A stretch of DNA of 64,000 nucleotides from Pseudomonadota bacterium. GTDB lineage: Bacteria > Pseudomonadota > Alphaproteobacteria > Micavibrionales > UBA2020. Under the pieces are notes generated by a model. That model did not search any database, was not told the origin of the DNA, and was given only the letters and a program-made list of their open reading frames with translations. Each line of letters begins with the position of its first letter. Within the stretch, counting starts at the first letter, position 1. The stretch covers positions 37 to 64,036 of the forward strand of contig JAEXMB010000081.1 in the NCBI GenBank assembly GCA_023444705.1, read 5' to 3'. The position numbers and the translations under genes were made by a program. This document shows, in pieces, positions 14,023 to 60,031 of the stretch.

Positions 14023-14134
14023 GGCAAATATTCCCTGACAGTGAGCGATGGGCGGCCAAAAGCGGCCATAGCCCGTGCGGGCGTGAATAACGCCCCTCTC
14101 GACAGTGTGCAACAAAAAGCGTTAATAAACACTG

Positions 14135-14527
14135 ATGTCATTGAAAATGAATGCCCGATTCTGCCGTCTGGCGGCCTTGGCCGTTGCGATAATCCCCCTG
14201 CTGGTGACGGCGGGGGCAAAACCTGTGCAGGCGCAATACATGACGGGTGCCGATTTATCGCAAAGCTGTGCTGCCGACAGCGGGGCCAATGCCATCAACC
14301 GCTGCCTTGGCTATATCGCGGGGGTGATCGACTATCACGTCGTCATGCAGTCGCTGGGCACCAATCCGTCGACGGATTTCTGCCTTCCCAAGGGCTTGCT
14401 GGTCGAAGAAGCCGCCATCACCGTATTGGCATATCTCAAGAACAAGCCCGACCAGCAGGGATTTATCGCAGCACCCGCGGTCGCGCTGGCGCTCAACGCC
14501 GTCTATCCGTGCAAATCCGTGCGTTGA
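14135..14527 (+). CDS. Rap1a/Tai4-like small periplasmic protein (putative T6SS-amidase immunity family)
   Basis: It has a signal peptide (...LLVTAGAKPVQA). The family-like pattern follows: MTGADL..C......RCLGYIAGVIDY ... DFCLPKGLLVEEAAITVLAYLKNKPDQQ ... ALALNAVYPC. Confidence 0.65.
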   Translation: MSLKMNARFCRLAALAVAIIPLLVTAGAKPVQAQYMTGADLSQSCAADSGANAINRCLGYIAGVIDYHVVMQSLGTNPSTDFCLPKGLLVEEAAITVLAYLKNKPDQQGFIAAPAVALALNAVYPCKSVR

Positions 14528-14605
14528 CTTGACGCCGCGTGCGGCGCGACTATATCGACCGGATCACCGCAATCCTTTCCCTTTTTTCGTTGGAGAACAT
14601 CCGTC

Positions 14606-38509: not shown

Positions 38510-39907
38510 ATGTCCGCCTCCCAGCTTCCCCCGCATAGCGACGAAACCCCGACTGTCTATCCCGGCCTGCGCCATGTCGACAGTGCGCATGCCCACAGTG
38601 ATGACGACGCGATGGCAACACCGCGCGGCGTGCTGAAAGCGGCGCTGGTGATCGTGGCTTGTGCGGCCGCGGGCTATCTTGCCTTTGCCACCCCGACCGA
38701 GGCCGAAAGCCCCGCCGCCGACGGCAAGGCCGACAAGGTCGCCGAAAAACCCGCCGAGGGTGCAGAGGGTGCGCCCGCCGGCGCGCCGCAAGCCATGCCG
38801 ATCAGCGTTGCGGTGGTGCCGGGTGTCGATATTACCCGCTACAGCGAGTTTTCGGGCCGCCTGCGCGCGGTCGAGGATGTCGAGATCCGCCCGCGCGTGT
38901 CGGGTATCATCGATGCCGTGAATTTCACCGAAGGCGACATGGTCGAAAAAGGGCAGGTGCTGTTCGTCATCGACCGCCGTCCGTTTCAGGCCAAGCTGAA
39001 CACCGCCGAGGCGGCTGTCGTTGCGGCGCAAGCCAGCGTCAAGCTGGCCGAGCGCGACATCAAGCGCGCGCGCGCCCTGCTGGCAGAACGCGCCCTGTCG
39101 CAACGCGAGTTTGACGAACGCCAGAGCGCGGTTGACAACGCCCGCGCCACGCTGGCGGGCGCGCAGGCGCAAAAAGAGCTTTATGCGCTTGATCTTGAAT
39201 TCTCCGAAGTGCGCGCGCCTGTCGCGGGCCGTATCGGTCGCCCCGAAATCACCGTGGGCAACACCGTACGCGCCAACGAAGACGTCGTGACCACGCTGCA
39301 GTCCATCAATCCAGTCTATCTTGATTTCGACATCGATGAGGGCACCTATCTGGGCCTGATGAAATCGGTGCGCGTGGACAACACCACCGGCAACATGCCT
39401 GTGGCGATGGCGCTGGCCGACGAGGAAGATTTCAACCGTCAGGGCCGTATCCGCTCGTTTGACAACCAGTTGCTGGCCACCAGCGGCACCATGCGCGTGC
39501 GCGCGGAATTCGACAATCCCGACGGCTTCCTTACGCCCGGCCTGTTCGCGCGCGTGCGCCTTGGCACGCCCGAGAAAATTCAGGCGGTCATCATCAACGA
39601 CAGTGCGATCAATACCGACCAGAGCAAACGCTTTGTCTACGTCGTCGCCGATGACGGCACGGTGCAGTACCGCGAGATCAAACAGGGCCCCATGCATCCG
39701 CTGGGCCGTATCATCGAAAGCGGCCTGCAGCCGGGCGAGAAAATCATCGTCAACGGCCTGTTGCGCGCACGCCCTGGCATGAAAGTAACGCCGATGGTGG
39801 TCGACATGACGACGCTGAAACCCGCCGATGCCGCCCCCGCAGCGCCTGCGGCGCCGATGGACGCACCGGATGCGCAGCCCGCCGCCGAAACGCCTGCACA
39901 AGACTGA
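38510..39907 (+). CDS. RND efflux periplasmic adaptor (membrane fusion protein)
   Basis: Membrane anchor, then SGRLRAVEDVEIRPRVSGII..V.F.EG..V.KGQVLF.ID.RPFQA, a coiled-coil hairpin, and a beta-barrel. This is an AcrA-family layout. Confidence 0.92.
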   Translation: MSASQLPPHSDETPTVYPGLRHVDSAHAHSDDDAMATPRGVLKAALVIVACAAAGYLAFATPTEAESPAADGKADKVAEKPAEGAEGAPAGAPQAMPISVAVVPGVDITRYSEFSGRLRAVEDVEIRPRVSGIIDAVNFTEGDMVEKGQVLFVIDRRPFQAKLNTAEAAVVAAQASVKLAERDIKRARALLAERALSQREFDERQSAVDNARATLAGAQAQKELYALDLEFSEVRAPVAGRIGRPEITVGNTVRANEDVVTTLQSINPVYLDFDIDEGTYLGLMKSVRVDNTTGNMPVAMALADEEDFNRQGRIRSFDNQLLATSGTMRVRAEFDNPDGFLTPGLFARVRLGTPEKIQAVIINDSAINTDQSKRFVYVVADDGTVQYREIKQGPMHPLGRIIESGLQPGEKIIVNGLLRARPGMKVTPMVVDMTTLKPADAAPAAPAAPMDAPDAQPAAETPAQD

Positions 39908-39969
39908 TCCTTCTTCTTCCCGCGCGGTCATAACTTTCGCCGTGTTCGCGCCAGCCCAAAGAGACCGAC

Positions 39970-42900
39970 ATGGATATTTCACGTTTCTTCGTCGACCGCC
40001 CGATTTTTGCCGCGGTGCTGTCGATCATTATCTTCGTGACGGGGGTTATCGCCCTGCCGTTACTGCCGATCTCGGAATATCCCGAAGTGACGCCGCCGTC
40101 GGTCGTCGTGCGCGCAAGCTATCCGGGTGCCAACCCCAAGGTCATCGCCTCGACCGTGGCAACGCCGCTTGAAGAACAGATCAACGGGGTGGAGGACATG
40201 ATCTATATGTCCTCGCAATCAGGGGCCGACGGCCAGATGGCGCTGACGGTCACCTTCAAGCTTGGCACCGACCCCGACAAAGCCCAGCAGCTGGTGCAAA
40301 ACCGCGTCAACCAGGCTTTGCCGCGCCTGCCCGACATTGTGCGCCAGGTGGGTGTTTCGACGGCGAAAAGCTCGCCCAACTTCATCATGGTCGTTCACCT
40401 TGTCTCGCCCAACGGGCGTTATGATGCGGATTACCTGCGCAACTATGGCGTTTTGAACGTCAAGGACCAGCTGTCGCGCATCGAAGGCATGGGCGAGGTC
40501 ATGATGTTCGGTGGCGGCGATTACGCCATGCGTATCTGGGTTGACCCCAACAAGATCGCCGAACTTGGCCTGACCGCAAGCGATGTCGCCAACGCAGTGC
40601 GCGAACAGAACGTGCAGGTGGCGGCGGGTATCATCGGCGGCCAGCCCCGCCCGATGGACGGCAATGCGGGTTTCGAGCTGCTGGTCAACACCAAGGGCCG
40701 CCTTGAAAGCGTCGAGGAATTCGAAAACATCATCATCAAGACCACGCCCACGGGCGGCATCACCCGCCTGAAAGAAGTCGCGCGCGTGGAGCTTGGCGCC
40801 AACCAGTACGCCATGCGCTCGCTGCTCAATAACAAGCAGGCGGCGGCCATCGGTGTGTTCCAGTCGTCGGATTCAAACGCGCTCGACATCGCCGCCGCCG
40901 TGCGTGCGAAAATGGCGGAGCTGAAAAAGAACTTCCCCGAAGATGTCGACTACACCATCGTCTATGACCCCACGCGTTTTGTCCGCGCCAGTATCGACGC
41001 GGTGATCCATACGCTGATCGAGGCGGTGATCCTGGTCGTTCTGGTGGTCATCGTGTTCCTGCAGACATGGCGCGCGTCGATCATTCCCTTGCTGGCCGTG
41101 CCGGTATCGATCGTGGGAACCTTTGGCATCATGCTGGGGGCGGGGTTTTCCATTAATAACCTCACGCTGTTCGGCCTTGTTCTTGCCATCGGGATCGTCG
41201 TCGACGACGCCATCGTCGTTGTGGAAAACGTCGAACGCAACATCGAAGACGGCTTGAGCCCGCGCGACGCCACCTACAAGGCGATGCAGGAAGTTTCCGG
41301 GCCGATTATCGCGATCGCGCTGACGCTGTGCGCGGTCTTCGTGCCGCTGGCCTTCATCACCGGCCTGACGGGGCAGTTCTTCCGCCAGTTCGCGCTGACG
41401 ATTTCGATTTCGACCGTCATTTCGGCCTTCAACTCCCTTACGCTCAGCCCCGCCATGTCGGCGTTGCTGTTGCGCGGGCATGATGCACCCAAGGACAGGC
41501 TGTCGCGCTTCATGGATAGCGGCTTTGGCTGGTTCTTCACGCGCTTTAACAGCTTCTTCCACGGCATGTCGCACCGCTACGGGCAGGGCCTGCGCCGTGT
41601 CATCCGCGTGCGCGTGCTGGCCGTGCTGGTCTATATCGGTCTTGCCATTGGTGCCGCATGGTTGTTTATGACCCTGCCCCAAGGTTATGTGCCGCAGCAG
41701 GACAAGCAGTATTTGGTGGGCTTTGCGCAGTTGCCGCCGGGCTCCTCGCTTGACCGCACCGACGCGGTGTTGCGCCGGATGTCTGAAATCGCCATGAAGA
41801 CCGAAGGCGTGCAGGATGCCGTGGCCTTCCCCGGCCTGTCGATCAGCTTTGGCGCGACGTCAAGCGCGGGCGTGGTGTTCTTCCCGCTGACGCCGTTTGA
41901 AGAGCGCCAGACCGACGAGCTGTACGGCCCCGCCATTGCGGGCAAGCTGATGGGGCAGATGGCGCAGATCGAAGATGCCTATGTGGGTATCTTCCCCCCG
42001 CCGCCTGTCGAGGGCATGGGTACCATCGGCGGTTTCAAACTGCAATTGCAGGACCGCGGCGACAAGGGCTATGAAGAACTTTATCAGGTGCTGCAAGCCG
42101 TGCAGATGAAAGCATGGCAGAACCCTGTACTGGCCAACGTGTTTTCAAGCTATCAGATCAACGTGCCCCAGCTTGACGTCGATATCGACCGCACCAAAGC
42201 CAAGCAGCTTGGCATTCCGCTGGCCAATATCTTTGATACGATGCAGGTCTATCTCGGCTCGCTCTACATCAACGACTTCAACCGTTTTGGCCGTACCTAT
42301 CAGGTGGTCGTGCAGGCTGACGCGCCCTTCCGCGACGATGCCAGCGACATCGGCCAGCTCAAGACCCGTAATATGGCGGGGGAGATGGTGCCGCTTGGCA
42401 CGGTGGTCAACGTGGCACCCAGTTACGGCCCCGACACGGCGTCGCGCTATAACCTCTACCGCACGGCAGAGCTGAACGGCGGCCCTGCGCCCGGACATTC
42501 CTCGGGCGAGGCGGAAAACGCCATGATCAAGATCCTCAACGAAACGCTGCCGCCCGGCATGTCGTTTGAGTGGACGGATCTGAAATACCAGCAGATTCTG
42601 GCTGGCAACACGACGATGTTCGTCTTCCCGCTCTGCGTCTTTCTGGTGTTTTTGGTACTGGCGGCGCAGTACGAAAGCCTGATGCTGCCGTTCATCATCA
42701 TCCTTATCGTTCCGGTTGTCGTGTTGTGCGGCATCTTTGGTGTCTGGATATGGGGTGGCGACAACAACATCTTCACCCAGATCGGCCTGACGGTCCTTGT
42801 GGGGCTTGCCTGCAAGAACGCGATCCTGATCGTGGAATTCGCGCGCGAACTTGAAATGCAGGGCGTCAAGCCGCTCGAGGCTGCGCTGACGGCCAGCCGC

Positions 42901-43167
42901 CTGCGTCTGCGCCCCATTCTGATGACGTCGTTTGCCTTCATCATGGGTGTGGTGCCGCTGGTGTTCTCAAGCGGTGCGGGTGCGGAAATGCGCCAGGCCA
43001 TCGGCGTGACGGTATTTTCGGGCATGCTGGGGGTGACGTTCTTTGGCTTGTTCCTGACGCCTGTTTTCTACGTCATCCTGCGCACGCTGTCGGGCGGCAC
43101 CTTTGTCAGCCATCACGCGCATGCGCCTATCAACGTCCACTTCGACGACGAGGACAATAAACAATGA
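39970..43167 (+). CDS. RND multidrug efflux permease (AcrB/HAE1 family)
   Basis: MDISRFFVDRPIFAAVLSIIIFVTG... 1065 aa, 12-TM RND layout, with GLACKNAILIVEFA near the C-terminus. Confidence 0.97.
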   Translation: MDISRFFVDRPIFAAVLSIIIFVTGVIALPLLPISEYPEVTPPSVVVRASYPGANPKVIASTVATPLEEQINGVEDMIYMSSQSGADGQMALTVTFKLGTDPDKAQQLVQNRVNQALPRLPDIVRQVGVSTAKSSPNFIMVVHLVSPNGRYDADYLRNYGVLNVKDQLSRIEGMGEVMMFGGGDYAMRIWVDPNKIAELGLTASDVANAVREQNVQVAAGIIGGQPRPMDGNAGFELLVNTKGRLESVEEFENIIIKTTPTGGITRLKEVARVELGANQYAMRSLLNNKQAAAIGVFQSSDSNALDIAAAVRAKMAELKKNFPEDVDYTIVYDPTRFVRASIDAVIHTLIEAVILVVLVVIVFLQTWRASIIPLLAVPVSIVGTFGIMLGAGFSINNLTLFGLVLAIGIVVDDAIVVVENVERNIEDGLSPRDATYKAMQEVSGPIIAIALTLCAVFVPLAFITGLTGQFFRQFALTISISTVISAFNSLTLSPAMSALLLRGHDAPKDRLSRFMDSGFGWFFTRFNSFFHGMSHRYGQGLRRVIRVRVLAVLVYIGLAIGAAWLFMTLPQGYVPQQDKQYLVGFAQLPPGSSLDRTDAVLRRMSEIAMKTEGVQDAVAFPGLSISFGATSSAGVVFFPLTPFEERQTDELYGPAIAGKLMGQMAQIEDAYVGIFPPPPVEGMGTIGGFKLQLQDRGDKGYEELYQVLQAVQMKAWQNPVLANVFSSYQINVPQLDVDIDRTKAKQLGIPLANIFDTMQVYLGSLYINDFNRFGRTYQVVVQADAPFRDDASDIGQLKTRNMAGEMVPLGTVVNVAPSYGPDTASRYNLYRTAELNGGPAPGHSSGEAENAMIKILNETLPPGMSFEWTDLKYQQILAGNTTMFVFPLCVFLVFLVLAAQYESLMLPFIIILIVPVVVLCGIFGVWIWGGDNNIFTQIGLTVLVGLACKNAILIVEFARELEMQGVKPLEAALTASRLRLRPILMTSFAFIMGVVPLVFSSGAGAEMRQAIGVTVFSGMLGVTFFGLFLTPVFYVILRTLSGGTFVSHHAHAPINVHFDDEDNKQ

Positions 43168-44663
43168 TTACCCTTACGCCCCAAACCCTGTTGCGCCTGT
43201 CGGCGGTGATGACGCTTTCGCTGACGCTGGCGGCATGCTCGCTGGCGCCGGACTATAAAACGCCCGACGTGTCCGTGCCCGCGCACTTCAAGGAAGAGGC
43301 GATGAACCCCAACGCGCCCGTCGACCTCAAGGCGCAGTGGAGCGAAGCCAAGCCCGCCGCCGACCAGTCGCGCGGCCCGTGGTGGGAAATGTTCAACGAC
43401 CGCGAGCTGAGCCAGCTGGTGATCGAGGCGACCAACAGCAACCAGAACCTGGCCGCAATGGCCGCACGCGTCGAACAGGCGCGTCAGACCGCAGTCATCG
43501 AAGGTGCGGCGTTGTTCCCCATGATCAGCGGCGAGGCGGGCGTACAACGCGCGATGTCTTCCGCCGCCGGCACGGGCATCCCCGGTCCCTTCAAGCCGGA
43601 AACGATCTATCGCGCCGGCCTTGGCCTGAGCTATGAAATCGACCTGTTCGGGCGCGTGCGCAATACCCGCGCCGCCGCCGCCGCCAATACGGCCGCGGTC
43701 GCATCGGATTTCAACAGCATGCTGCTGACCCTGCAAAGTGACGTGGCGCAACTCTACTTCACGATGCGCGGTCAGGATGCCGAGATCAAACTGCTGCGCG
43801 AAACGCTGGGCTTGCGTAAAGACAGCCTGAAAATCCTTGAAAAGCGCCGCGATGTCGGCACGGTGACCGATCTTGAGGTTGCGCAAAACATCGTCGACCT
43901 TGAAAATACCCGTGCGGCGCTGGAGCAACTTGAAAGCGAGCGCTCGCGCAACGAAAACGCGCTGGCCGTTCTGCTGGGCAAGGCACCGGCCGAATTCTCG
44001 CTGGCGCAAAAGCCGCTGAGCGCGCAGGCGCCCAAGGTGCCGGCGGGCCTGCCCTCGACCTTGCTCGAGCGCCGTCCTGACATTGCCGCCGCGCAATATA
44101 ACCTGATGGCCGCCAATGCGCGCATCGGTATCGCACGCGCGGCGTTCTTTCCCTCACTGTCGCTGACGGCGTCGGGTGGGTTCGCCTCGGAAAGTCTTGG
44201 CAAGCTGTTTGACTGGTCAAGCCGCACCTGGGCTATCGGCCCGCTGATGACGCTGCCGATCTTTCAGGGCGGACGCATCGTGGCGGAAAACGAGCGTACC
44301 AAGGCGGCCTATGCTGAAAGCGTCGCTATCTACCGCCAGCAGGTGCTGGGCGCGTTTCAGGATGTGGAAGACACGCTGTCGCGCCTGAAGATGCGCGACG
44401 CGCAGGCGCAATCCTATGGCCGCGCCAAGGCCGCTGCCGACAAGGCGGCGCGTCTGGCCTCGCTGCGTTTTGAAAGCGGGGATACCGGCTATCTCGAGGA
44501 AATCGAGGCCAAGCAAAGCGCGCTCAATGCGGGCCGCGCCGTCATCCAGACGCAGGCTGGCAAGATGGTCGATACCGTGCAGCTGGTACGTGCCCTTGGC
44601 GGTGATTTCACGGCCGATTTCGGCGGCGTGCGCCCCACGCCTGCCGCGCCGAAAAAACAGTAA
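43164..44663 (+). CDS. RND efflux outer-membrane factor lipoprotein (NodT/OprM family)
   Basis: Lipobox LTLAACS, and the tandem OEP repeats RPDIAAAQ / FFPSLSLTASGG. A 4-nt ATGA overlap links it to the permease gene. Confidence 0.93.
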   Translation: MITLTPQTLLRLSAVMTLSLTLAACSLAPDYKTPDVSVPAHFKEEAMNPNAPVDLKAQWSEAKPAADQSRGPWWEMFNDRELSQLVIEATNSNQNLAAMAARVEQARQTAVIEGAALFPMISGEAGVQRAMSSAAGTGIPGPFKPETIYRAGLGLSYEIDLFGRVRNTRAAAAANTAAVASDFNSMLLTLQSDVAQLYFTMRGQDAEIKLLRETLGLRKDSLKILEKRRDVGTVTDLEVAQNIVDLENTRAALEQLESERSRNENALAVLLGKAPAEFSLAQKPLSAQAPKVPAGLPSTLLERRPDIAAAQYNLMAANARIGIARAAFFPSLSLTASGGFASESLGKLFDWSSRTWAIGPLMTLPIFQGGRIVAENERTKAAYAESVAIYRQQVLGAFQDVEDTLSRLKMRDAQAQSYGRAKAAADKAARLASLRFESGDTGYLEEIEAKQSALNAGRAVIQTQAGKMVDTVQLVRALGGDFTADFGGVRPTPAAPKKQ

Positions 44664-50891: not shown

Positions 50892-52238
50892 TCATCGCTC
50901 GCTGAAGGCTGTCGCCATCGCCGATTGCAGAGGTTTGAGCAGATAGGTCATGATGGTTTTCTCGCCGGTGACGATATCGGCCATCACTGTCATGCCGGGC
51001 AGGATGCGGTTGGCGGTCGTGCCGACATAAGGTTTTTCAAGCGCGACGGTGCCTTCGTAAAAGCGCTCCCCTTTCTCGCCCGCAAAGGTGCTGGGGGAAA
51101 GCGCGGTCAGCCTGCCGCGCACGGCGCCATAGCGCGCAAAGTCAAAACTGCTGACCTTGACCTGCACATTCTGGCCGATTTTCAGATGGCCGATATCGGC
51201 GGGGCGGATGCGCAGGTTGACCACCAGCGGCCCGTCATTGGGCACAATTTCCATCACCGCCTGTGCCGGCTGGATGACGCCGCCGCGCAATTGCAGGTTC
51301 AGCCCCTGCACCATGCCGTCAATAGGGGCCGTGACCAGAAGGTTTTCAAGGCGGTTTTGCAATTTGGCGATCAGTTCGCGGTTTTCGCCTGATTGCGCCA
51401 GCACGCCGTCAAGTTCGCGGTGAGCGTCATCGGCGCGGCCGGCACTCATCGCCTGCTTGCGGGTGGTCAGCTCTGCCAGCATGGCCTGCGTGCCTGCAAC
51501 GTCGCCACGCAGGCGGTCGCGCGCGGCGACGGCATCGTTATAGCGTTGTTCGGTTTCCATCAGGCGCACGTCCGACAACACGCCCTGCCGGTTGAGCGCG
51601 CGGCGCTTGTCCATCAGCGATGTCATCAACGCGGCATTGCGCTCGGCACTGGCGCTGGCGCGGTGCAGGGCGGATAGTTCGGCCTGTTTCTGGCGGATCT
51701 GCTCGTCGATCACGGCCATGTCTTGCGCTGCCGATGTCTGCTGGCTTTTGAGGAAAGCGGCCTGATCGGCGATCAGTGCGTCTGCCTCCGCGCCATCTGC
51801 GGCAAAGACGGGCGCGCGGCCTTCGATCAGGGCGCGCAGGCGTTCTTCCTGCAGGTCAAGCGTGGTCTGGCGTGCCTGTGCGCGGGCAAGATCCTGGCGG
51901 ATATCGGCATCGTCCAGACGCAGAAGCGGATCGCCCCTTTTAACCATCTGGCCATCGCGCACCATGACGCTGGCCACGGTGCCGCCGTCGCGGTGCTGCA
52001 CCATGCGGCTTTGCGTGGCGGGCACGGCCTCGCCCGGCGCGCGCGCCACTTCGCCGACGTGGGCAAAGCAGGCCCAGACGATAAAGGCCAGCAACATCGT
52101 ACACAGCGTTGCGATGGTGGCACGCAAGATGCCCGGCGTTTCGGCTTCGGCCAGACGGATGGATTGCGCAAGATAGCGGGTTTGATGGGTGATGCGGTGT
52201 TTTTGCGTGCGGTGCAGGTCAAGGGTTGTGCTGGTCAT
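50892..52238 (-). CDS. HlyD-family type I secretion membrane fusion protein
   Basis: An N-terminal TM helix and a long coiled coil are followed by the C-terminal barrel, ending ...MTYLLKPL. This is a typical T1SS MFP. A 1-nt overlap links it to the upstream ABC gene. Confidence 0.93.
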   Translation of the reverse strand: MTSTTLDLHRTQKHRITHQTRYLAQSIRLAEAETPGILRATIATLCTMLLAFIVWACFAHVGEVARAPGEAVPATQSRMVQHRDGGTVASVMVRDGQMVKRGDPLLRLDDADIRQDLARAQARQTTLDLQEERLRALIEGRAPVFAADGAEADALIADQAAFLKSQQTSAAQDMAVIDEQIRQKQAELSALHRASASAERNAALMTSLMDKRRALNRQGVLSDVRLMETEQRYNDAVAARDRLRGDVAGTQAMLAELTTRKQAMSAGRADDAHRELDGVLAQSGENRELIAKLQNRLENLLVTAPIDGMVQGLNLQLRGGVIQPAQAVMEIVPNDGPLVVNLRIRPADIGHLKIGQNVQVKVSSFDFARYGAVRGRLTALSPSTFAGEKGERFYEGTVALEKPYVGTTANRILPGMTVMADIVTGEKTIMTYLLKPLQSAMATAFSER

Positions 52239-54505
52239 CAGGCGCTCTCCCGTTTAGGCGTGAAATAGGTGACTTCCGGCTCTTGCTTGTCGCTGTGCGG
52301 CGTGACGTTGCGCGCCAGGTAGTTGATCTTGCCGGCACGGATATCGACTACGCTGTCGGCCAGCGCCAGAATATCCTGCTGCTGGCTGACGATGACGATG
52401 GTGCGCTGGCCGCGCACGCGGTTGATAAAGCGTCTGAGCGTTTCACCCGCCTTGCCGGTGGTGACGCTGGCGGGCAGCTCGTCAATCAGCAAAACGGCCC
52501 CGCCGTGCAGATAGCCGCGCGCCAGCGACAGGCGTGCGGCAAGACTGTGGGGCAGTTTCTGCGGGTCAAGCTTTGCGTAAACGCCGCCGTCCATCGCCTT
52601 GACCTCGTCCATCGCATCGGCAAGGGTAAGGGCGTGGATGACCTCGGCCTCGCTGGCAAGGGGGCGTGCATAGCGCAGGTTTTCGATGATGCTGGCGCTG
52701 AAAAACTCTGCCTGCTGTCCGACATAGCCGATGTGGCGGCGCAGGTGCAGGGGGTCGAGCTGGCGCACGTCAAAACCGTCGATGCGCACCGCCCCGCCCT
52801 GCGTGCGGTACATGCCTTTGATGAGCTTGAGGATAGTGCTTTTGCCGCTGCCGTTGCGCCCCGTGATGCCGACGATCTCGCCGGTGCGGATATGAATGTC
52901 GGCATGACGCAGCACGGGCTGCGTGTCGGCATGGTATTGCATCGTCACGTTGGCAAAGATGATGTCGCCACGGATGTCGAGCAGGCGTGCCGCGCTCATC
53001 GCGCTTTCTTCTTCGGTCTCGATGTCGGTCAGGTCGTTGATCTGCGCCACGCTGTTGCGCAGCTGTTCGATACGCGTGACCATCGCGCATAGACTGTAAA
53101 ACGGCATCAGGACGCGCCAGACGAGCATCATGCTGGCGATCAGCGCGCCTGTGCCGATGGCGCCTTCCCATACCATATGTACGCCGTAACCTACCGTGGC
53201 AACCGCTGCCATCAGGGTAAGTGCATGGGCAAGGGTCTCCGCCACCGTGCTGAGCCAGGTCAGGTTCATGTTCATCATGATCTCGCGTCCCGCAAGATCG
53301 GCGTATTTGGCCTGCCAGACGGGGGAAAGGCCGTTGGCGTGGATGCCGGCCAGCTTGTCAAACGTTTCCAGCGTGAATTGCTGGCGTGCCGAGCTGGCCT
53401 TGGCGGCAAGACGGATCACAACCTTGGTCCGTTTATAGATGACGGCGAACAACACGCCAAAACAGCCAAGCATCATGACCGGCACAAAGGCCAGCGGTCC
53501 CGCGATCAGACCGATCAGTCCGACGGCCAGCACGACGTAGGGGATTTCAAGAAAGGACAGAAAGATTGCGCCACTGAACAAATCGCGGATCGATTCAAAC
53601 GTCTTGATGCGCGCGATCTGCGCTGCGACAGAAATTTTTTCGCCCGTATGCGGCGGCAGGCCCAGCAAATGGGCGAAAATCTGCGTGCCGACCAGCGTGT
53701 CAAGGCGTGCGGACAGCCATGATAACGCGCGTGAGCGCACGCCGCGCAACGCATACTCGGCACAAAGCGCGATGGCGACGCCGATGGTGATGGCAGGCAG
53801 GCTGGCCAGATGCGCGGGCGACACCACGCGGTCATAAACCGCCATCATGTAAAGCGGTGGCGCAAGGGCTGCGATATTCAGCACAAGGCCGATCAGCAAA
53901 ATATGACGCAGCGTCGGTGAAAAGCGCGACAGCAATGCGCGAAACCAGCTTTGGCCCGTACCCTGGCGGATAAAGCGTGACAAACGCTGGCGCTGGCGGT
54001 CATAGGGTTGGAAAAACCAGATGCGCGCGGGCAGGCGAAAGCGTCCGTCGGTGGCATCATGTTCGTTGATCTCGCCGCTGGCGGGATCGTAGATGACGAC
54101 CCGCGCGTCATGGCGGGCGATCAGCGTATAGGGCAGTGCGCCGGGATCGGCAGGCACGACAAGGCAAGGAGCAAGGCGGCCGTCGATCTCGCTGACGGGC
54201 AGATCAAGCGGACGTGAAAAATGACCGAGGTTTGCCATTGCGTTGAGAACGGCGGTTTCGTCAAGGTGACGGGCGGTGGGCGGCAGGGCCTCGAGCGTGT
54301 CGGTCACGCGGTTGTCGGTATTGAGTGTCAGCGCCAGCGCGCAAAAGCAGTTTTTCCACGCCTGCGCCATCGCTTCGGGTGCGTCTTCGGCCTGTGCGCT
54401 GTGATGCCACAGGTGGGTGTCGAGCAGGGTTGACAGGCGCGCGATGGTTTGCGCAAAGACGTTCATATCCTTATCGCTGTAAAGCTGTGGTGACGTGTGC
54501 GTCAT
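52238..54505 (-). CDS. T1SS ABC transporter with N-terminal C39-like domain; degenerate signature and H-loop
   Basis: The N-terminal ~170 aa resemble a C39/C39-like domain (NCFCALAL ... ARHDARVVIYDPASG). A 6-TM region follows, then Walker A GRNGSGKST and Walker B LLIDE. The signature position reads LPHSL instead of LSGGQ (52541-52555), and the H-loop reads VSQQQ. The start is taken at MTHTSPQ (ATGA overlap with the upstream gene). Confidence 0.9.
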   Translation of the reverse strand: MTHTSPQLYSDKDMNVFAQTIARLSTLLDTHLWHHSAQAEDAPEAMAQAWKNCFCALALTLNTDNRVTDTLEALPPTARHLDETAVLNAMANLGHFSRPLDLPVSEIDGRLAPCLVVPADPGALPYTLIARHDARVVIYDPASGEINEHDATDGRFRLPARIWFFQPYDRQRQRLSRFIRQGTGQSWFRALLSRFSPTLRHILLIGLVLNIAALAPPLYMMAVYDRVVSPAHLASLPAITIGVAIALCAEYALRGVRSRALSWLSARLDTLVGTQIFAHLLGLPPHTGEKISVAAQIARIKTFESIRDLFSGAIFLSFLEIPYVVLAVGLIGLIAGPLAFVPVMMLGCFGVLFAVIYKRTKVVIRLAAKASSARQQFTLETFDKLAGIHANGLSPVWQAKYADLAGREIMMNMNLTWLSTVAETLAHALTLMAAVATVGYGVHMVWEGAIGTGALIASMMLVWRVLMPFYSLCAMVTRIEQLRNSVAQINDLTDIETEEESAMSAARLLDIRGDIIFANVTMQYHADTQPVLRHADIHIRTGEIVGITGRNGSGKSTILKLIKGMYRTQGGAVRIDGFDVRQLDPLHLRRHIGYVGQQAEFFSASIIENLRYARPLASEAEVIHALTLADAMDEVKAMDGGVYAKLDPQKLPHSLAARLSLARGYLHGGAVLLIDELPASVTTGKAGETLRRFINRVRGQRTIVIVSQQQDILALADSVVDIRAGKINYLARNVTPHSDKQEPEVTYFTPKRESA

Positions 54506-56202
54506 AGGGTTTCTCCTGCGTCGGTGATATCGCCGCTCATGGCGCATTCGGTGATGCGCCCGCCCTGCAGGTGCAGGTGCCGCGTGGCCAGGGCCTGCAT
54601 CGCGGGTTCCTCGCTGACAATAATCATGCTGACGCGACCGCGCATGGCGTGCAGGTGATCGACCAGCAGCTTTTGCCCGTGACGGTCAAGCGACATATCG
54701 GCACCGTCCAGCAGCAAGACGCCCGGCGTGGCTGCAATGACGCGCGCCATCGCGATGCGCTGCTTGAGGCCCGGGGGGATCGTGTCGCTGATGTTTCCCT
54801 GCAGAAAAGTGTCAAAGCCAAGCGGCAGGCGCGCGATGTCCTTGTCGATGCCAAGCTGCGTGGCCGCGCGGCGGGCGTTGAGCGCATCGATGTCGCCAAA
54901 GCGGGTGATGTTATGGCGGATGGTGCCGCGAAAGATCACCGGTTCGGCATTGACATAGCCGATATGGCGCGCCAGTTGGGCCGGCGTGTAGCGGCGCAGC
55001 GGCTGGCCGTCGATGCGGATGTCGCCGCGCGTCGGGCTCAGTACGCCGGCCAGCAGGCGCAGCAACGTCGTCTTGCCGCTGCCGGTAGGGCCGCTGAGCC
55101 AGACGATGTCACCCGGTGAAATGACAAGCTGGTCGATGGTGAATAACGGCTTGTCAGCTCCTGCAGGTGCATAGGCCAGATTGGCAAGCGCAAGGTTGCC
55201 CCCGGGTTGTGCTGTGGCGCTTTCGCTCACGGCATGGGTGGATAGCCAGCGGCTGTCATGTCGCGCGGGTTCTTCGAGCAGGGTGTTGATTTTCTGGCGC
55301 GCAAGGCTTGCGTCCTGCTGCTTGATCAACAGCGTCAGCCCGCGTTGCACCATCTGCATCATGCGTCCTGACAGCAACAGCGTCGCGACAAGCGCGCCCG
55401 AGGTGATTTCATGACGCAGGGCCAGAAAGGCGCCTAGCATGATGGTGGCGACGACGATAACGTTGGATAATGTGGCGCAGGCGTTAAAGGCTTTGGCCGT
55501 GGCCTCCGCCGTGGTGAAGTTACGCCGTGCGCTGTGTTCTTCGAGCTGTTCGTACTTGCGCTGGAAGATTTTTTCAAGCGTCAGCGCCTTGAGCGTGTGG
55601 ATGGCGCCAAGGGTTTCAATCAGAAAATTATAACGCTTGTCATCCGCTGCATCGCGCTGCGCCAGCAGGCGGCGCAGGGTCTGCCCTTGGGCCAGTGACA
55701 GCAGTGCCATCGCCATCAGTCCCGTCGCGGGTACAATGGCCAGCGGCCCTGCGATATAGATCACAAAAGCCAAAAAGACGGGAATGAAGGCAAGGTCGAT
55801 CAGCGTCACCGGCAGATAGCCGTTGTTGAAATCGCGCAACTTGCCGATGGCCGACATCTGGTGCAGGTATTCGCCCGCGCCGCGCTTGAGCATGTCGGGC
55901 AGGTCTGCCGCCAGCACATGGTCAAGTGCATGGCAGGACATGCGGTATTCGTAAACCGCACCGTACCAGCCCAGCAGCCAGGCGCGCATCAGGCGCAAGG
56001 CCGCCTCGAGCGCGACGGCCACCGCCACCCCCGCGATCAGCAGGGGCAATGTGCCTGATCCCGGATTGGGCAGGATACGGTCATAGATTTGCAAGGTCAT
56101 CACGGGCAGGGCCAGCGCCAGAATATTGATGGCGATACTGGCCGTGACCAGTTGCAACAGCGAAATGTCGGCACGCAGCAGGGGGGCGTGTGCTTTGCTC
56201 AT
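54502..56202 (-). CDS. Second T1SS-type ABC transporter (no N-terminal accessory domain); catalytic motifs degenerate
   Basis: The TMD carries IYDRILP. Walker A is GPTGSGKTT. The Q-loop position reads YVNAEP and the signature position IPPGL (54766-54780). Walker B is LLLDGA, so the catalytic Glu is replaced by Gly (54703-54705). The H-loop reads VSEEP. Confidence 0.9.
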   Translation of the reverse strand: MSKAHAPLLRADISLLQLVTASIAINILALALPVMTLQIYDRILPNPGSGTLPLLIAGVAVAVALEAALRLMRAWLLGWYGAVYEYRMSCHALDHVLAADLPDMLKRGAGEYLHQMSAIGKLRDFNNGYLPVTLIDLAFIPVFLAFVIYIAGPLAIVPATGLMAMALLSLAQGQTLRRLLAQRDAADDKRYNFLIETLGAIHTLKALTLEKIFQRKYEQLEEHSARRNFTTAEATAKAFNACATLSNVIVVATIMLGAFLALRHEITSGALVATLLLSGRMMQMVQRGLTLLIKQQDASLARQKINTLLEEPARHDSRWLSTHAVSESATAQPGGNLALANLAYAPAGADKPLFTIDQLVISPGDIVWLSGPTGSGKTTLLRLLAGVLSPTRGDIRIDGQPLRRYTPAQLARHIGYVNAEPVIFRGTIRHNITRFGDIDALNARRAATQLGIDKDIARLPLGFDTFLQGNISDTIPPGLKQRIAMARVIAATPGVLLLDGADMSLDRHGQKLLVDHLHAMRGRVSMIIVSEEPAMQALATRHLHLQGGRITECAMSGDITDAGETL

Positions 56203-58340
56203 CCAAACAATCCTCCCAGCAGGCCACCGGATTTGCCGCCGCCAAGACCGCCAAGGCCGCCGAGCAGGCCGCCCCCGTCACCGCCATGACTGCCGCCGCC
56301 AAGGTCGAGCAGGCCGATACCCTCGACAATCGAGCCCACGGGCGCCAGTACGCCGCCGTCACCGCCGCTGCCACCGCCAAGCACGCTGTCGATCAGTGTA
56401 TCGCCAAGGTCTGATACGGGGGTTGCAGGCCAGGCACCGCCATCGCCGCCAAGGCCGCCTGCCAGCCCGCCAGTCAGTCCATCCAGCAGGCCGTCGGTCA
56501 CTCTACCCAGCGTGTCGCCAAGCGGGCTGTCGCCGCCAACGCTGACAAGGTCGGATAACGTGCCTGCCAGCGCACCGGGATTGCCAAGCGCGTCAAGGGC
56601 TGCCGTCACGTCGATATCAAGGTCGCCGGTAATGGCTTCGACGATATCAAGCGGCACATGGATATCGTCGATGATGCCAAGGCTGACCGTCAGGTCGGTA
56701 TCGCAGCCTTCGGCGGGCGGGGGGAGAATACCGCCGCTCAGGCCATCCAGCAGATCGCCGGCGACAGGTATATCACCAAGACCCGCCGTAACAGTGTCGA
56801 CCACGCCATCAAGGCCGCCGCCGGCCAGATCACCGATCACGTCACTCACGATGTCGGGCAGGGCGGTGACGACCTCGTGAATTTCACCTGCGGGATCCTG
56901 CAAAATAGCCTCGACCGTGGTGGGGATGGTGACGTCGATGTCGGGCAAGGCTCCGCCCAGTAACTCGCCACCCAGCGATACGGTCGTATCGGCTCCTTGC
57001 AGGATGCCGTCTATGCCGGCATTGACGTCGATATCGCCCACGATTTGTTCCACCACATCAAGGCCAACATGCAGCGTGTCGTTCAGCACAGGCACATCGG
57101 CGATGCCAAGGTCCACCAGAAGGTCGGTATCGCCGCTGGCGGGCGGGGACAGCAGGCCGTCGGTCAGTCCGGATGTCAGCGTTTCAATGGTATCGGGCAG
57201 GCCCATCACGACATCTGTCAGGCTGCCGGCGGGATCGTGCAGAAGGCTTTCTACCGTGACGGGCAGCGACAGGGTGATGTCAGGCAGGGCAGTGCCCAGC
57301 AGCTCCCCGCCCAGCGATACGGTCGTATCCGTTCCCTGCAGGATACCGTCGATGCCGACATTCACGTCGATATCACCCACGATCTGCTCGACCAGATCCA
57401 ATCCCACATGCAGCGTATCGTTGAGCAACGGCAGGTCGGCGATGCCAAGATCGACGATGATGTCAGTGTCCGATCCGGTGGGCGGGGGTTCAAGAAGAGG
57501 GGTGAGGATATTGGTGACCGTCGTCGTGATGGTGGTAATGATGTCGGGCAGGATGGTGGTGATGTTTTCGGTGATGTTCTCGACGGTTTGGGTAATGTTG
57601 GTGACGATGTTCGTCACCTCGGTCAGCTCGATAACCGGACCGATGGTGATCGGGCCGATGATGTCGATATCGACCAGCGTCGTGCCGCCGCAGCAATGAT
57701 CGCCACCGCCGTTGCTGCCGTTTGCGCCATCCGTTCCGTTGGTGCCATTCGTGCCGTTGGTGCCGTTTTGCCCTGCAGGGCCTGCGGGGCCGGGCGTGCC
57801 GTTGGTGCCGTTGCTGCCCGATGCCGCATCAATCGTTGCGGGTGCCGGCAGCACGTCCGAGCTGATGAAGCCGCCGCCGGCGTTTTGTGCGGTCGTGGCG
57901 GGCATGAATTGCGCGGCTGCCGCGCTGTGGCTGTGTACGCTGCCACCGCTGCTGGCTTCGGTGACCGTCATGCCTGCGGGGGTGCTGTGACCTGCCGCAA
58001 CACTGCCCGCAACGCCGCTATATCCCGCCGCGATGCCTGCGGCAAGACTGCCAAGCGTCATGTCCTGGCTATAGGCGCTGTCGCCTGCGCTGGCATCGGC
58101 GAGCAGGTCGTTTTGCTGCGCCTGCAGGATTGCGTGATTGAGGTTGCCCGATCCGGCAATGCCTTCGCTGTTGTCGCCGATTTCCGTGGCGGTGTAGTAA
58201 TCGGCATCAAGTTTTTGTGCCACTGTGCTGCTGACGAAGGCATCGGGCAGGGGGGCTGTGCGTGTATCGCCGCCCACGGCAGGCTGCACGAGGTTGGTGT
58301 TTGGCGTGGCGGTGCCACCGGTGATGTCCAGCAAGGCCAT
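56199..58340 (-). CDS. Putative T1SS cargo: 713-aa highly acidic Gly/Thr/Asp/Leu-rich repeat protein with a collagen-like segment
   Basis: The start is taken at MALLDITGG (ATG 58340-58338), with the RBS AAGGGGGA 8 nt upstream. The stop overlaps the ABC start (ATGA). By my count there are only 2 Lys and 2 Arg. Segments are listed as separate repeat features. Confidence 0.8.
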   Translation of the reverse strand: MALLDITGGTATPNTNLVQPAVGGDTRTAPLPDAFVSSTVAQKLDADYYTATEIGDNSEGIAGSGNLNHAILQAQQNDLLADASAGDSAYSQDMTLGSLAAGIAAGYSGVAGSVAAGHSTPAGMTVTEASSGGSVHSHSAAAAQFMPATTAQNAGGGFISSDVLPAPATIDAASGSNGTNGTPGPAGPAGQNGTNGTNGTNGTDGANGSNGGGDHCCGGTTLVDIDIIGPITIGPVIELTEVTNIVTNITQTVENITENITTILPDIITTITTTVTNILTPLLEPPPTGSDTDIIVDLGIADLPLLNDTLHVGLDLVEQIVGDIDVNVGIDGILQGTDTTVSLGGELLGTALPDITLSLPVTVESLLHDPAGSLTDVVMGLPDTIETLTSGLTDGLLSPPASGDTDLLVDLGIADVPVLNDTLHVGLDVVEQIVGDIDVNAGIDGILQGADTTVSLGGELLGGALPDIDVTIPTTVEAILQDPAGEIHEVVTALPDIVSDVIGDLAGGGLDGVVDTVTAGLGDIPVAGDLLDGLSGGILPPPAEGCDTDLTVSLGIIDDIHVPLDIVEAITGDLDIDVTAALDALGNPGALAGTLSDLVSVGGDSPLGDTLGRVTDGLLDGLTGGLAGGLGGDGGAWPATPVSDLGDTLIDSVLGGGSGGDGGVLAPVGSIVEGIGLLDLGGGSHGGDGGGLLGGLGGLGGGKSGGLLGGLFG
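56574..57470 (-). repeat. Two and a half tandem coding repeats (~113-143 aa units) inside the cargo gene
   Basis: Unit 1 (57132-57470) reads DTDIIVDLGIADLPLLNDTLHVGLDLVEQIVGDIDVNVGIDGILQGTDTTVSLGGELLG... Unit 2 (56703-57131) reads DTDLLVDLGIADVPVLNDTLHVGLDVVEQIVGDIDVNAGIDGILQGADTTVSLGGELLG... The partial unit 3 (56574-56702) reads DTDLTVSLGIIDDIHVPLDIVEAITGDLDIDV. Each unit is preceded by PPP/PPA-x-G. Confidence 0.85.
57702..57818 (-). repeat. Collagen-like Gly-X-Y run (about 12-13 triplets) inside the cargo gene
   Basis: GSN GTN GTP GPA GPA GQN GTN GTN GTN GTD GAN GSN GGG. It also creates several N-G-T/S sequons. Confidence 0.85.
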
Positions 58341-58557
58341 GATGCGATCCCCCTTTGTTTTTGCGGTGCGCAAAGTCCGGCGTGGTGCCGTTGTCTCTTT
58401 GCGTCCACTCTTTCAGGATGCAACTTTTGGTTTAATTAGGGATGAAATATGCCAAAACCTTTATGGAACGTGGTTCACAAAAATCTGCATATTTAAAGTG
58501 ATTTCAGCCAAATCCACAAAAAAACGTATACACTTTAGGGTTGTATTTTGATATGGT

Positions 58558-58583
58558 GGCGCATTCCGGCATATGCGCCGGAA
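58558..58583. promoter_or_regulatory. Two interleaved inverted repeats in the cargo-operon / tolC divergent control region
   Basis: The repeats are GGCGCAT(58558-58564)...ATGCGCC(58573-58579) and TTCCGGC(58564-58570)-N6-GCCGGAA(58577-58583). They lie 33-58 nt upstream of the TolC-like ATG. This may be an operator or a leader hairpin; the function is unproven. Confidence 0.3.
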
Positions 58584-58615
58584 GCGTCTGTCCGCTGTAT
58601 ATAGGAGAGAATCGC

Positions 58616-60031
58616 ATGATGTTGCCGTTACTTTTTACCCGCCGCTCTGGCGTTTTTTTTATCGTTGTCGCTGTGCTGCTGCCCGTCGTGGCGGCAGCGC
58701 AGCAATCCTCCCCGCCGCAACCGCGCACCGTCGATTTGGCGCACATCGCGGCGGCGGCATACCAGCATAGTCCGGCCATCCGCGCGGCGCGCCAGCAATT
58801 GCGCGGCGTGCAGGAGCTTTATCCGCAGGCACTGGCGAATTACCAGCCCGACATCAATGCGACCGCGGGCATCACCGACGAAGATCTGGATAACAGCAAC
58901 TTCGCCGGTGCCGATGGTGCCACGACCAAGGATGTCGGCGTGACGTTTGACCAGCCGGTCTGGCGCGGCGGGCGCAGCCGCGCGCAAAAGAACGAGGCCA
59001 AGGCGCGCATCGCCGCACAAAAGGCATCGCTGGCCGCAACCGAACAACGCATGATGGCCGACGCGATGACGGCGGCAGTGGCGGCCGAGGCCGCGACGCG
59101 CACGCTGTCCGTGCAGAATAATACCGAAGGCCTGTATCAACGCCTGCTTGGCGATACCGTCAAACGGCAGGAAGGTGGCGAGGCGACGCAAACCGATCGC
59201 GCGCTGGCGCAAAGCCGCCTGTCGGGCGTCACGGCCGACCGCCTGCAGGCCGCCAATCGCCGCAGCGCCGCTGGCCGCGCGCTGGAGCGCCAGACCGGGC
59301 AAACCCCCGCACAATGGGGGTTGGATGATGCTGTGCCCACGTTGACGCTACAGGGCATGCCCGCAACGCTGGAAGCCGCGCAATCGCTGGCGCGCGCCGC
59401 CAATCCTGACCGTGCCGTGCTGGTGGCGGTGCAGGACGCGGAAAACCACGGCATCGAGCTTGCCCGCGGTGAGTTGTTGCCGGAGCTGAACTTCCGCGCC
59501 AGCTGGCTGCGTGAATGGGACCCGTCGCCCGGCCTGATCGACGATGCCACCAGCCGGCAGGTTGGGTTGCGCCTGAGCATTCCGTTATATGAGGGCGGGG
59601 GCACGCGGTCGCGCGTACGTGCGGCTAAAAACCGCATGGCACAAAGCCGCTATGAGCTTGAAGATTTCGACCTCAAGCTCGCGCAGGACGTCGGCGATGC
59701 GTGGACGCGTCATGAAACCGCGCAGGAACGCGCGCGTGTACTGGCCGAGCAAAGCCGCAGTGCGCGCGTTGCACGCGACAATATCGAGCGCGAAATCCTG
59801 GGGGGAGAAAAAACCATGACCGATCTGCTGCAGGCCGACCAGACATGGCTGGATGCGCAGGTCGATGCCATTGCAGCGCAAGAAGCGGCGCAGAACAGCA
59901 TGATCGAGGTATTGCGCCTGACCGGCATGCTCACGCCGCAAAACCTTGGCTTTGGCGCTGCGGCTTACGATCCTGATGCTTATCTGCTGGCGGTGCGTCA
60001 CCGCGTTCTCAGCACTGCGGTGCCGGATTAG
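58616..60031 (+). CDS. TolC-family outer-membrane channel
   Basis: The start MMLPLLF follows the RBS AGGAGA. It has a signal peptide (...VVAAAQQ) and two OEP repeats with typical motifs (AYQHSPAIRAARQQL..., YPQ..., QPVW.GGR, IPLYEGG). Length is about 471 aa. Confidence 0.88.
   Translation: MMLPLLFTRRSGVFFIVVAVLLPVVAAAQQSSPPQPRTVDLAHIAAAAYQHSPAIRAARQQLRGVQELYPQALANYQPDINATAGITDEDLDNSNFAGADGATTKDVGVTFDQPVWRGGRSRAQKNEAKARIAAQKASLAATEQRMMADAMTAAVAAEAATRTLSVQNNTEGLYQRLLGDTVKRQEGGEATQTDRALAQSRLSGVTADRLQAANRRSAAGRALERQTGQTPAQWGLDDAVPTLTLQGMPATLEAAQSLARAANPDRAVLVAVQDAENHGIELARGELLPELNFRASWLREWDPSPGLIDDATSRQVGLRLSIPLYEGGGTRSRVRAAKNRMAQSRYELEDFDLKLAQDVGDAWTRHETAQERARVLAEQSRSARVARDNIEREILGGEKTMTDLLQADQTWLDAQVDAIAAQEAAQNSMIEVLRLTGMLTPQNLGFGAAAYDPDAYLLAVRHRVLSTAVPD

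Follow-up and report, generated by a model that had tools for sequence, protein, structure and literature searches.

The stretch of DNA analyzed here, 64,000 nucleotides of contig JAEXMB010000081.1 from an alphaproteobacterium of the Micavibrionales (hereafter the window), carries on its reverse strand a gene (56199-58340) for a strongly acidic protein of 713 aa without a Sec/Tat-type N-terminus. Our results indicate that this protein, as judged by comparison with its homologues, is a member of a conserved, unannotated family rather than a one-off mosaic, and that it is very probably the dedicated cargo of a four-component type I secretion system (T1SS). An earlier note on this DNA, made from its letters without database searches, had proposed that the protein is a surface or extracellular fibre exported by the adjacent machinery. 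Its assignment to that machinery was borne out by a gene cassette that is conserved in about 40 loci and whose genes overlap. The fibre part of the proposal, with a probably trimeric architecture, is plausible and is now better founded, because a Thr/Asn/Ile-rich (T/N/I) helix shows 11/3 periodicity and Cys cluster where a collagen-like Gly-X-Y (GXY) run ends; whether that run forms a true triple helix is uncertain because it is optional and Pro-poor.

The cargo gene is followed on the same strand by genes for a short ATP-binding cassette (ABC) half-transporter of 566 aa (54502-56202), a long ABC half-transporter encoded by a 769-aa open reading frame (ORF; 52238-54547) and a HlyD-family T1SS adaptor of 448 aa (50892-52238; TIGR01843, 347.9 bits against a cut-off of 208.65), while a TolC-family outer-membrane factor (496-aa ORF, 58541-60031, forward strand) is divergent from the cargo. 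The stop codon of the cargo overlaps the ATG of the short ABC as ATGA (56199-56202), the stop codon of the short ABC overlaps an internal ATG of the long-ABC ORF (MTHTS..., 54505), again as ATGA, and the stop codon of the long ABC overlaps the HlyD start by 1 nt (52238). Because of the ATGA overlap at 54505, this ATG is the likely start of the long ABC, which is probably 755 aa rather than 769 aa in length. The overlaps at all three junctions indicate that the four co-directional genes are translationally coupled. Synteny was examined in three Logan contigs, the contig of the homologue that is 77% identical to the cargo and 39 GTDB species representatives, and the order TolC (divergent)-cargo-ABCshort-ABClong-HlyD was kept in essentially all sufficiently long loci (about 40). 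Across these loci, the transporters are 40-51% identical to those of the window and the cargo only 26-35%.

The two ABC proteins are unequal. The short one lacks an N-terminal domain and has a degenerate nucleotide-binding domain (NBD), which keeps Walker A but has a Walker B without Glu (LLLDGAD), no Q-loop Gln, no H-loop His and the signature PPGLKQ. The long one keeps a Walker B with the catalytic Glu (LLIDE) and the Q-loop Gln, with LPHSLAARLS as its signature and SQQQD as its H-loop. This asymmetry is conserved in 11 orthologous pairs, with PPGL in the signature of the short ABC, and suggests that the pair is an obligate heterodimer with one non-hydrolytic site, similar to known heterodimeric ABC exporters in which one site is degenerate. 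For both proteins, the best NCBIfam model is the LssB-type TIGR03375 (337 and 401 bits, below the cut-off of 693.1), and both are related to, but outside, the curated LssB subfamily. The N-domain of the long ABC aligns to that of the LssB model, but Pfam Peptidase_C39 did not match it even at E<=10, and its profile matched the C39-like domain 3b79 only marginally (E 0.62). Most likely it is a C39-like domain without catalytic function, like that of HlyB (PMC8277102). The domain also has two invariant Cys, both within an invariant W-E-x-C-L-C-A-L motif (~54150-54400, reverse strand).

The family to which the cargo belongs is large. Although only 15 relatives came out of a word-indexed search of 5.8 billion proteins (P0001 with 77% identity, the others with 26-33%), 174 clusters reached E<=1e-30 and 410 reached E<=1e-10 when 1.84 billion cluster representatives were searched exhaustively with a profile. 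Where the sources name these homologues, they call them "hypothetical" or "uncharacterized", as with PZQ46654.1 / A0A2W5N0P8 from a metagenome-assembled genome (MAG) of Micavibrio aeruginosavorus. Pfam and NCBIfam scans of the cargo gave no match at E<=0.01, and neither library holds a model of the family. With Pfam relaxed to E<=1, Collagen was matched in 7 of 14 aligned members and Baculo_PEP_C, below threshold, over the T/N/I helix; the window cargo itself stays below Pfam Collagen significance. A sequence-profile search of the PDB matched only collagens and the phage 80alpha fibre gp68 (6v8i). The impression that the protein fits no described family was confirmed by these searches together with a Foldseek search, and literature searches on the family, its GGLFG terminus or collagen-like T1SS cargo returned nothing relevant.

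In the alignment of the family, the modules follow one another as an N-terminal motif (N-motif), a variable Ala/Gly/Ser region, the GXY run, the T/N/I segment, acidic repeats, a Trp, LPDPVGxxxEGLG and GGLFG. The order N-motif, GXY run, repeats is kept in 101 of the 102 members in which a GXY run and repeats occur together. Because the features of the cargo recur in the same order in its homologues, they are far beyond chance. The 136 full-length members measure 453-1243 aa and contain about 18% Asp plus Glu and about 0.9% Lys plus Arg. The GXY run is optional, being present in 97 of 130 members and reaching at least five triplets in 102 of the 136 full-length members. Among the 149 members that bear the N-motif, the C-terminal GGLFG is exact in 119 and LFG is found in 130, a W[PT]xx motif occurs in 118 and an LPDPVG-like motif near the C-terminus in 102, and a hydrophobic N-terminal signal was found in none.

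The window cargo shows this organization in full (all coordinates on the reverse strand). Its ORF extends over 56199-58373; the ATG at 58340, with GGGGGA just 5' of it, is the start common to its closest homologue P0001, and a TTG at 58373 is the alternative. The protein is rich in Gly (18%), Leu (12.6%), Asp (10.4%) and Thr (10.4%) and contains 3 Cys and 1 Trp. The 2 Lys and 2 Arg in 713 aa, and with them the extreme acidity, had been counted correctly in the earlier note; the calculated pI is 4.05 and the net charge about -89. The N-motif (aa 43-76, KLDADYYTATEIGDNSEGIAGSGNLNHAILQAQQ, 58113-58214) is conserved in the family with the consensus KLDADxYxAxDxDGxTESLxGSGNxNxxxxQxxQ and the invariant residues L44, A46, D47, Y49, E59, G63-S64-G65-N66, Q73 and Q76, and an Ala/Gly/Ser-rich linker with unconserved sequence and predicted disorder follows (aa 77-174, 57819-58112). 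Regular-expression searches recovered the other modules that had been described, in part with refined limits. The collagen-like run, first put at about 12 triplets, consists of 13 uninterrupted ones (aa 175-213, 57702-57818), and the DHCCGG Cys pair (aa 214-219, 57684-57701) stands right after it. The Ile/Thr string (aa 243-279, 57504-57614) is slightly narrower than first drawn, the PPx-G-DTD repeat openers are found at aa 285, 399 and 541, and the Gly/Leu tail covers aa 690-713. In the stretch that separates the GXY run from the T/N/I helix, the window cargo also carries DIDIIGPITIGPVIE; in some homologues, short repeats of 5-6 residues (NLGDI / LGDINLGDI) occupy this position (P0005, aa ~270-305; P0009, P0010 and P0011).

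The evidence for a trimeric stalk comes from the T/N/I segment and its surroundings. This segment (aa 239-283, 57492-57626) is predicted to be a long alpha-helix and is a candidate trimerizing coiled coil. Its normalized hydrophobic-moment amplitude is 0.65 at 11/3 versus 0.32 at 7/2, with a peak at 3.67 residues in the window cargo; the mean peak over 111 members is 3.66, and several of them show literal 11- or 22-residue repeats. As read from these sequences, the periodicity is the hendecad signature of non-heptad coiled coils. The maximal fraction of Thr, Asn and Ile within 44 aa is 0.57-0.59, versus 0.23 overall, in members with or without a GXY run, and since the T/N/I segment is present regardless of that run, it is a core module. 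Where present, the GXY run lies directly N-terminal to the segment, and the family profile aligns to gp68 (6v8i) over the collagen and the helix after it. The triplets are G-T-N in the window cargo and G-[T/S/N]-[N/D] in the family. Moreover, 39 of the 125 Cys of GXY-bearing members lie within positions -3 to +20 of the run end, compared with 3.7 expected, a count that includes related sequences and overstates their independence. The cluster is found in 19 of 126 GXY-bearing proteins from several sub-lineages, with the motifs CCSCDG, GCCGP, CNECCG, CHDCCGC and, in the window, DHCCGG, a pair that could form an interchain cystine knot. Where a triple helix ends, two Cys per chain suffice for a knot of three interchain disulfides, and the cystine knots of collagens III and IV clamp the chain register and nucleate folding (PMC12107170). 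The many N-x-T/S sequons of the cargo, which had been taken to raise the possibility of glycosylation, give that idea no support, because they are a by-product of the G-T-N triplets and of the residues that make up the T/N/I helix, and because the conserved cassette includes no glycosyltransferase.

C-terminal to the stalk lie the acidic repeats, the tandem nature of which was borne out. R1 and R2 are 68% identical across 110 aa (E 5e-56); R3, taken for this comparison as aa 541-654, matches each of them at 34-41% identity. The unit of 113-143 aa first noticed proved to be a super-repeat, which consists of one canonical 45-aa unit, one degenerate unit (DTTVSLGGELLG...LPVTVESLLHDPAG in the window super-repeats) and a linker, and this unit-unit-linker organization is common to the window super-repeats and those of the homologues. 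R1 spans aa 283-398 (57147-57494), with its canonical unit at aa 289-332 (57345-57476) followed by the degenerate unit and a linker helix; R2 spans aa 399-540 (56721-57146; canonical unit aa 402-445, 57006-57137); and the partial R3 spans aa 541-627 (56460-56720; canonical unit aa 545-582, 56595-56708). Iterated searches within the family with hidden Markov models gave GGDTDLTLxLDLLDNxLLxDxLxIPLDPVEDLVGDIDLDLxLAL as the consensus of the 45-aa core. This core was found 536 times in 156 proteins of the family, with a commonest spacing of 50-59 residues. Across 102 aligned super-repeats, Asp, Glu, Gly-Asp-x-Asp and one Gly do not vary, a pattern that would be expected for a cation-binding unit.

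These repeats are not RTX repeats. PF00353 (HemolysinCabind) did not match the cargo at E<=0.01 or at E<=1, and the strict GGxGxDxUx expression was found nowhere in the window cargo and at most three times, scattered and without arrays, in family members; the statement that the protein lacks true RTX nonapeptides holds on both counts. Profile and structure searches of the repeat, which had been recommended as a check, likewise matched no known adhesin or RTX domain. The three Gly-Asp motifs GGLGGDGG, GGSGGDGG and GSHGGDGGG were indeed found (aa 628, 656 and 683), where they flank conserved family motifs, but they are common only to the window cargo and P0001. As they are lineage-specific, their significance as Ca-binding-like motifs finds no support; for Ca binding throughout the family, it is the Asp/Glu-rich 45-aa repeats that come into question. 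The C-terminal conserved region (aa 637-713, 56202-56432) includes the invariant W637, APVGSIVEGIG (LPDPVGxxxEGLG in the family), the Gly/Leu tail and the GGLFG end, and is proposed to be the secretion signal. In 33 of the 149 N-motif-bearing members, at least two His stand in the last 15 residues directly before GGLFG (e.g. GGGNHHHGGLFG and HHHHSPLGGLFG; such C-termini are found in L003 12850-12886, L013, L043 and P0014), and the window cargo has only SHGGDGGG there. Such a His-rich stretch may allow the C-terminal region to bind metal.

Taken together, these features would fit the following course of events. In the low-calcium cytoplasm, the polyanionic chain (about -89, no signal peptide) would be kept unfolded, to be recognized through the ~80 conserved residues at its C-terminus, the last of which are GGLFG-COOH, and, by T1SS precedent, threaded C-terminus first. 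Outside the cell, the Asp/Glu-rich 45-aa repeats (GDTDL...LDPVExxxGDIDL) would bind divalent cations and fold; RTX proteins provide the precedent for calcium-gated folding, and the MARTX RtxB/RtxE system that for two ABC genes (PMC3034196). Three chains would then join through the T/N/I hendecad helix (aa 239-283), which would set the register for the adjacent 13 GXY triplets, and the CC pair between run and helix would form an interchain disulfide knot. The product would be a trimeric stalked fibre, the strictly conserved N-motif of which would exit last and could either tether the fibre at the dedicated TolC or the cell surface or have a binding function. Of all this, the gene anatomy, the conservation of the family, the synteny and the periodicities are observed, and the direction of export, the dependence on calcium, the trimerization and the retention at the surface are inferred. 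As a whole, from the C-terminal signal and unfolded export through cation-driven folding to a hendecad trimer with a cystine knot and a late N-motif, we consider this mechanism evenly balanced between right and wrong.

Several observations weigh against it, in addition to the relatedness of the sequences that underlie the Cys count. The GXY runs are short, optional and Pro-poor, with Asn (36%) or Asp (27%) in the Y position; we know of no stable triple helix with such an Asn/Asp-rich, Pro-poor composition, and the run could be a flexible spacer only. The predicted helix at aa 239-283 contains P265 and has a predicted local distance difference test (pLDDT) score of just 50-57. Since a T1SS bypasses the periplasmic disulfide machinery, the knot would have to form spontaneously and extracellularly. 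AlphaFold2 (AF2) modelled the full cargo from a 14-sequence alignment with a mean pLDDT of 38, the sole helices with pLDDT of at least about 50 being those at aa 65-85 in the N-motif and at aa 239-283. R1, modelled from the 102-row repeat alignment, reached a mean pLDDT of 58.6, but only its linker helix was confident, and the repeat core was built as short strands with pLDDT 44-51. A Foldseek search of the model against the PDB gave a best E of 0.58 with TM ~0.2 and no fold assignment. Such low AF2 confidence fits a protein that would fold only with cations and/or as an oligomer.

It would also fit the main rival explanation, namely that the cargo is a secreted, monomeric and largely disordered polyanion that serves as a cation-binding matrix, as a biofilm or S-layer-like component or as a surface buffer for Ca or other metals, with the GXY run and the helix as spacers. 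This explanation accounts for the very low AF2 confidence over nearly the entire chain as well as for the extreme charge, the dispensable and Pro-poor GXY run, and module lengths that vary widely among members of 453-1243 aa. However, the conserved 11/3 periodicity of a helix of 40-60 residues is hard to square with a mere spacer, the Cys cluster recurs exactly at the GXY/helix junction of a Cys-poor family, and the invariant positions of the 45-aa repeat (D, E, G-D-x-D) are typical of a folded ligand-binding unit. We consider a monomeric matrix protein rather unlikely, though it is the alternative that deserves the most serious attention.

T1SS-exported toxins with glycine zippers exist, CdzC/D of Caulobacter being an example, and the cargo could likewise be a contact-dependent antibacterial or predation effector, held at the surface after T1SS export, whose Gly/Leu C-terminus perturbs the envelope of a target cell. 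The window cargo does end in GGLLGGLGGLGGGKSGGLLGGLFG, with GxxxG-like spacing, and the family is concentrated in MAGs labelled Micavibrio, epibiotic predators for which the factors of attachment and feeding are not known (PMC3189940; PMC12428579). Yet GGLFG alone is conserved and the long Gly/Leu tail is common only to the closest homologue; the cassette is not accompanied by a conserved small gene of immunity type; the cargo is without a hydrophobic or amphipathic pore-forming region, and a charge of -89 disfavours membrane insertion; and the window cassette lies in an ordinary metabolic neighbourhood. We assign a low probability to an effector role, which could coexist with the fibre architecture.

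Two further readings are effectively excluded. In the first, a double-glycine leader would be cut by a C39 peptidase of the long ABC, as in bacteriocin or NHLP-type systems, and no C-terminal signal would be used. The cargo does begin with MALLDITGG, the N-terminal extension of the long ABC is homologous to the LssB-type N-domain, and NHLP systems, to which there are weaker NCBIfam matches, also have two ABC genes and a HlyD. But the LssB, HlyB and PrtD models outscore the NHLM models by far, and the strongest conservation of the family lies at the extreme C-terminus. The short N-terminus ending in GG that the earlier note had pointed out is present, but it is not a conserved leader, since this GG (aa 8-9) is shared only with the 77% identical homologue; as the long ABC has no Peptidase_C39 match and matches 3b79 only at E 0.62, C39 processing was rejected as very improbable. 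Finally, that the ORF is a spurious low-complexity frame, as its composition, the long ORFs overlapping it on the opposite strand (usual at 62% GC) and the absence of the exact protein from the protein collection might suggest, has practically no likelihood in view of hundreds of homologues with the same module order, termini and cassette position, a good Shine-Dalgarno sequence and translational coupling.

The biological role of the cargo is likely adhesion or cell-cell contact and possibly, among the Micavibrio-like members that make up most of the family, attachment to prey. Among the 39 GTDB loci, 17 bear the label Micavibrio, Pseudobdellovibrionaceae or Bdellovibrionales (NCBI files Micavibrio under Pseudobdellovibrionaceae / Bdellovibrionales) and the rest are mostly unclassified Alphaproteobacteria MAGs; since the scan was made with the N-motif of the Micavibrio-like subfamily, which the motif variant of the window cargo itself would escape, these counts are a lower bound and the taxonomic picture is biased. 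The genome paper on Micavibrio, which prey as obligate epibionts, covers RTX-like proteins and T1SS, not the cargo family (PMC3189940). According to a 2025 review, the molecular basis of epibiotic junctions is unknown (PMC12428579). Concentrated as it is in Micavibrio-like predators, for which no attachment machinery is known, the family is a testable candidate for predator-prey adhesion. The most far-reaching reading would be that the family is a surface fibre attaching both Micavibrio-like epibiotic predators and the window alphaproteobacterium to other cells, that it is a T1SS-exported homotrimer in which a Pro-poor collagen-like helix starts to form at the coiled coil and cystine knot and grows from the C- to the N-terminal side at the TolC exit, and that it is exported by a heterodimeric ABC with one dead ATP site through a new GGLFG-COOH signal; this composite is distinctly unlikely to hold in all of its parts.

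A T1SS-secreted acidic repeat protein is of a known kind. Undescribed in the libraries and literature searched are the family itself, the 45-aa repeat, the GGLFG terminus, the stalk made of collagen-like run, hendecad helix and Cys cluster, and the constant association of the family with an exporter of two unequal ABC proteins. If the trimeric-fibre proposal is correct, the family would be a new one among T1SS substrates, in which an acidic 45-aa repeat takes the place of RTX nonapeptides, and its well-conserved C-terminal address, GGLFG, would provide a handle for studies of T1SS signal recognition. Moreover, a collagen-like/coiled-coil/cystine-knot stalk would be linked to T1SS export for the first time, a conserved asymmetric pair of ABC half-transporters would be a family feature, and several hundred "hypothetical protein" entries would gain an annotation.

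The surroundings of the cassette were examined as well. Next to the TolC gene, a receiver-less sigma-54 enhancer-binding protein of 323 aa (60038-61009, reverse strand) has AAA+ and HTH_8 domains and no N-terminal sensory domain. A homologue of this activator flanks the cassette in 8 fetched loci (L001, L011, L016, L024, L038, L039, L040 and L044), and other loci have response regulators and hybrid histidine kinases instead. Neither in the window nor in any of 37 loci was a canonical sigma-54 -24/-12 element found 5' of the cargo gene. Within the cargo/TolC intergenic region (58341-58540), the non-coding blocks GTTTTGGCATATTTCA and ATTAAACCAAAAGTTGCATCCTGAAAGAGTGGA are conserved with the locus of the closest relative (L044) and are a candidate regulatory site; the TGGCAT and TTGCAT within them are separated by 25 nt, a spacing that is not canonical for sigma-54. 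With no canonical element and the wrong spacing, sigma-54 control of the cargo was dropped as a demonstrated link. The cassette sits amid ordinary chromosomal and metabolic genes with unchanged GC content, and an Rfam search of the window gave no matches. The UvrB of this uncultured alphaproteobacterium is no more than about 79% identical to its homologues from MAGs recorded as "Alphaproteobacteria bacterium". About 6 kb from the cassette lies a complete resistance-nodulation-division (RND) efflux operon (38510-44663, forward strand) for a MexE-like adaptor, an RND permease and a NodT-type outer-membrane factor, so the genome encodes outer-membrane channels besides the cassette TolC. Farther away are an AAA+ ATPase of the CbbX/SpoVK/EccA type (488 aa, 35342-36808, forward strand), which is sub-threshold to all three NCBIfam models, and two ORFs without an NCBIfam match at E<=1e-10, one of 972 aa (18366-21284, reverse strand) and one of 512 aa (12994-14532, forward strand), the latter overlapping a 574-aa ORF on the opposite strand.

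Among known secretion systems, the RTX systems of the HlyB-HlyD-TolC type are similar in that an acidic, Cys-poor cargo with Gly/Asp-rich repeats and no N-terminal signal is encoded beside ABC, HlyD and TolC genes, that the repeats stand just upstream of a C-terminal region that is a candidate uncleaved signal, and that the long ABC, like HlyB, has a C39-like N-domain. In contrast to RTX cargo, the protein described here is without GGxGxDxUx or PF00353 and has a 45-aa repeat, and its cassette has two ABC genes rather than one. HlyA-type signals are poorly conserved, whereas the C-terminus of the cargo family is a conserved GGLFG. Two ABC genes and one adaptor for one cargo are also found in the MARTX T1SS (RtxB, RtxD, RtxE and TolC), a likeness at the level of organization only (PMC3034196). 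The MARTX gene order is rtxB-rtxD-rtxE rather than ABC-ABC-adaptor, and here TolC is in the locus, one of the two ABC proteins is without the N-domain and its NBD is degenerate, and the cargo is unrelated to MARTX toxins.

Correspondingly, the stalk can be compared with collagen-like proteins (Scl, BclA, Lcl, Bucl8 and gp68 of 6v8i), in which an uninterrupted GXY run likewise stands beside a helix, a possible trimerization or registration domain. These proteins are exported by Sec or assembled into virions, whereas the cargo would leave through a T1SS; the cargo run has very little Pro, is short (13 triplets) and is dispensable in a quarter of the family. The adjacent Cys at the run end (...GGG-DH-CC-GG in the window) are reminiscent of the C-terminal Cys-Cys of collagen III and of the collagen IV knots (PMC12107170), a resemblance without homology that is limited to the 19 of 126 GXY-bearing members with a Cys cluster. 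Like the LapA and MpIBP adhesins, the cargo is a T1SS substrate with a dedicated TolC-like channel and a late-exiting conserved N-terminal element, and display by retention is conceivable; unlike them, it is much smaller and has no BIg or RTX domains, recognizable retention module or LapG site, and LapG/LapD-like genes were found neither in the cassette nor in homologous loci with Pfam-labelled genes. The trimeric autotransporter adhesins and the MAT fibres of Bdellovibrio differ in their secretion route, and the cargo has neither a YadA-type anchor (no Pfam match; a Gly-rich tail instead) nor a phage-fibre head, nor any sequence similarity to them that we could detect. For the recognition of prey, predatory bacteria are known to rely on trimeric fibres (PMC10769870). 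What the cargo family would share with these proteins is the stalk, a predicted non-heptad coiled coil rich in Asn, Thr and Ile.

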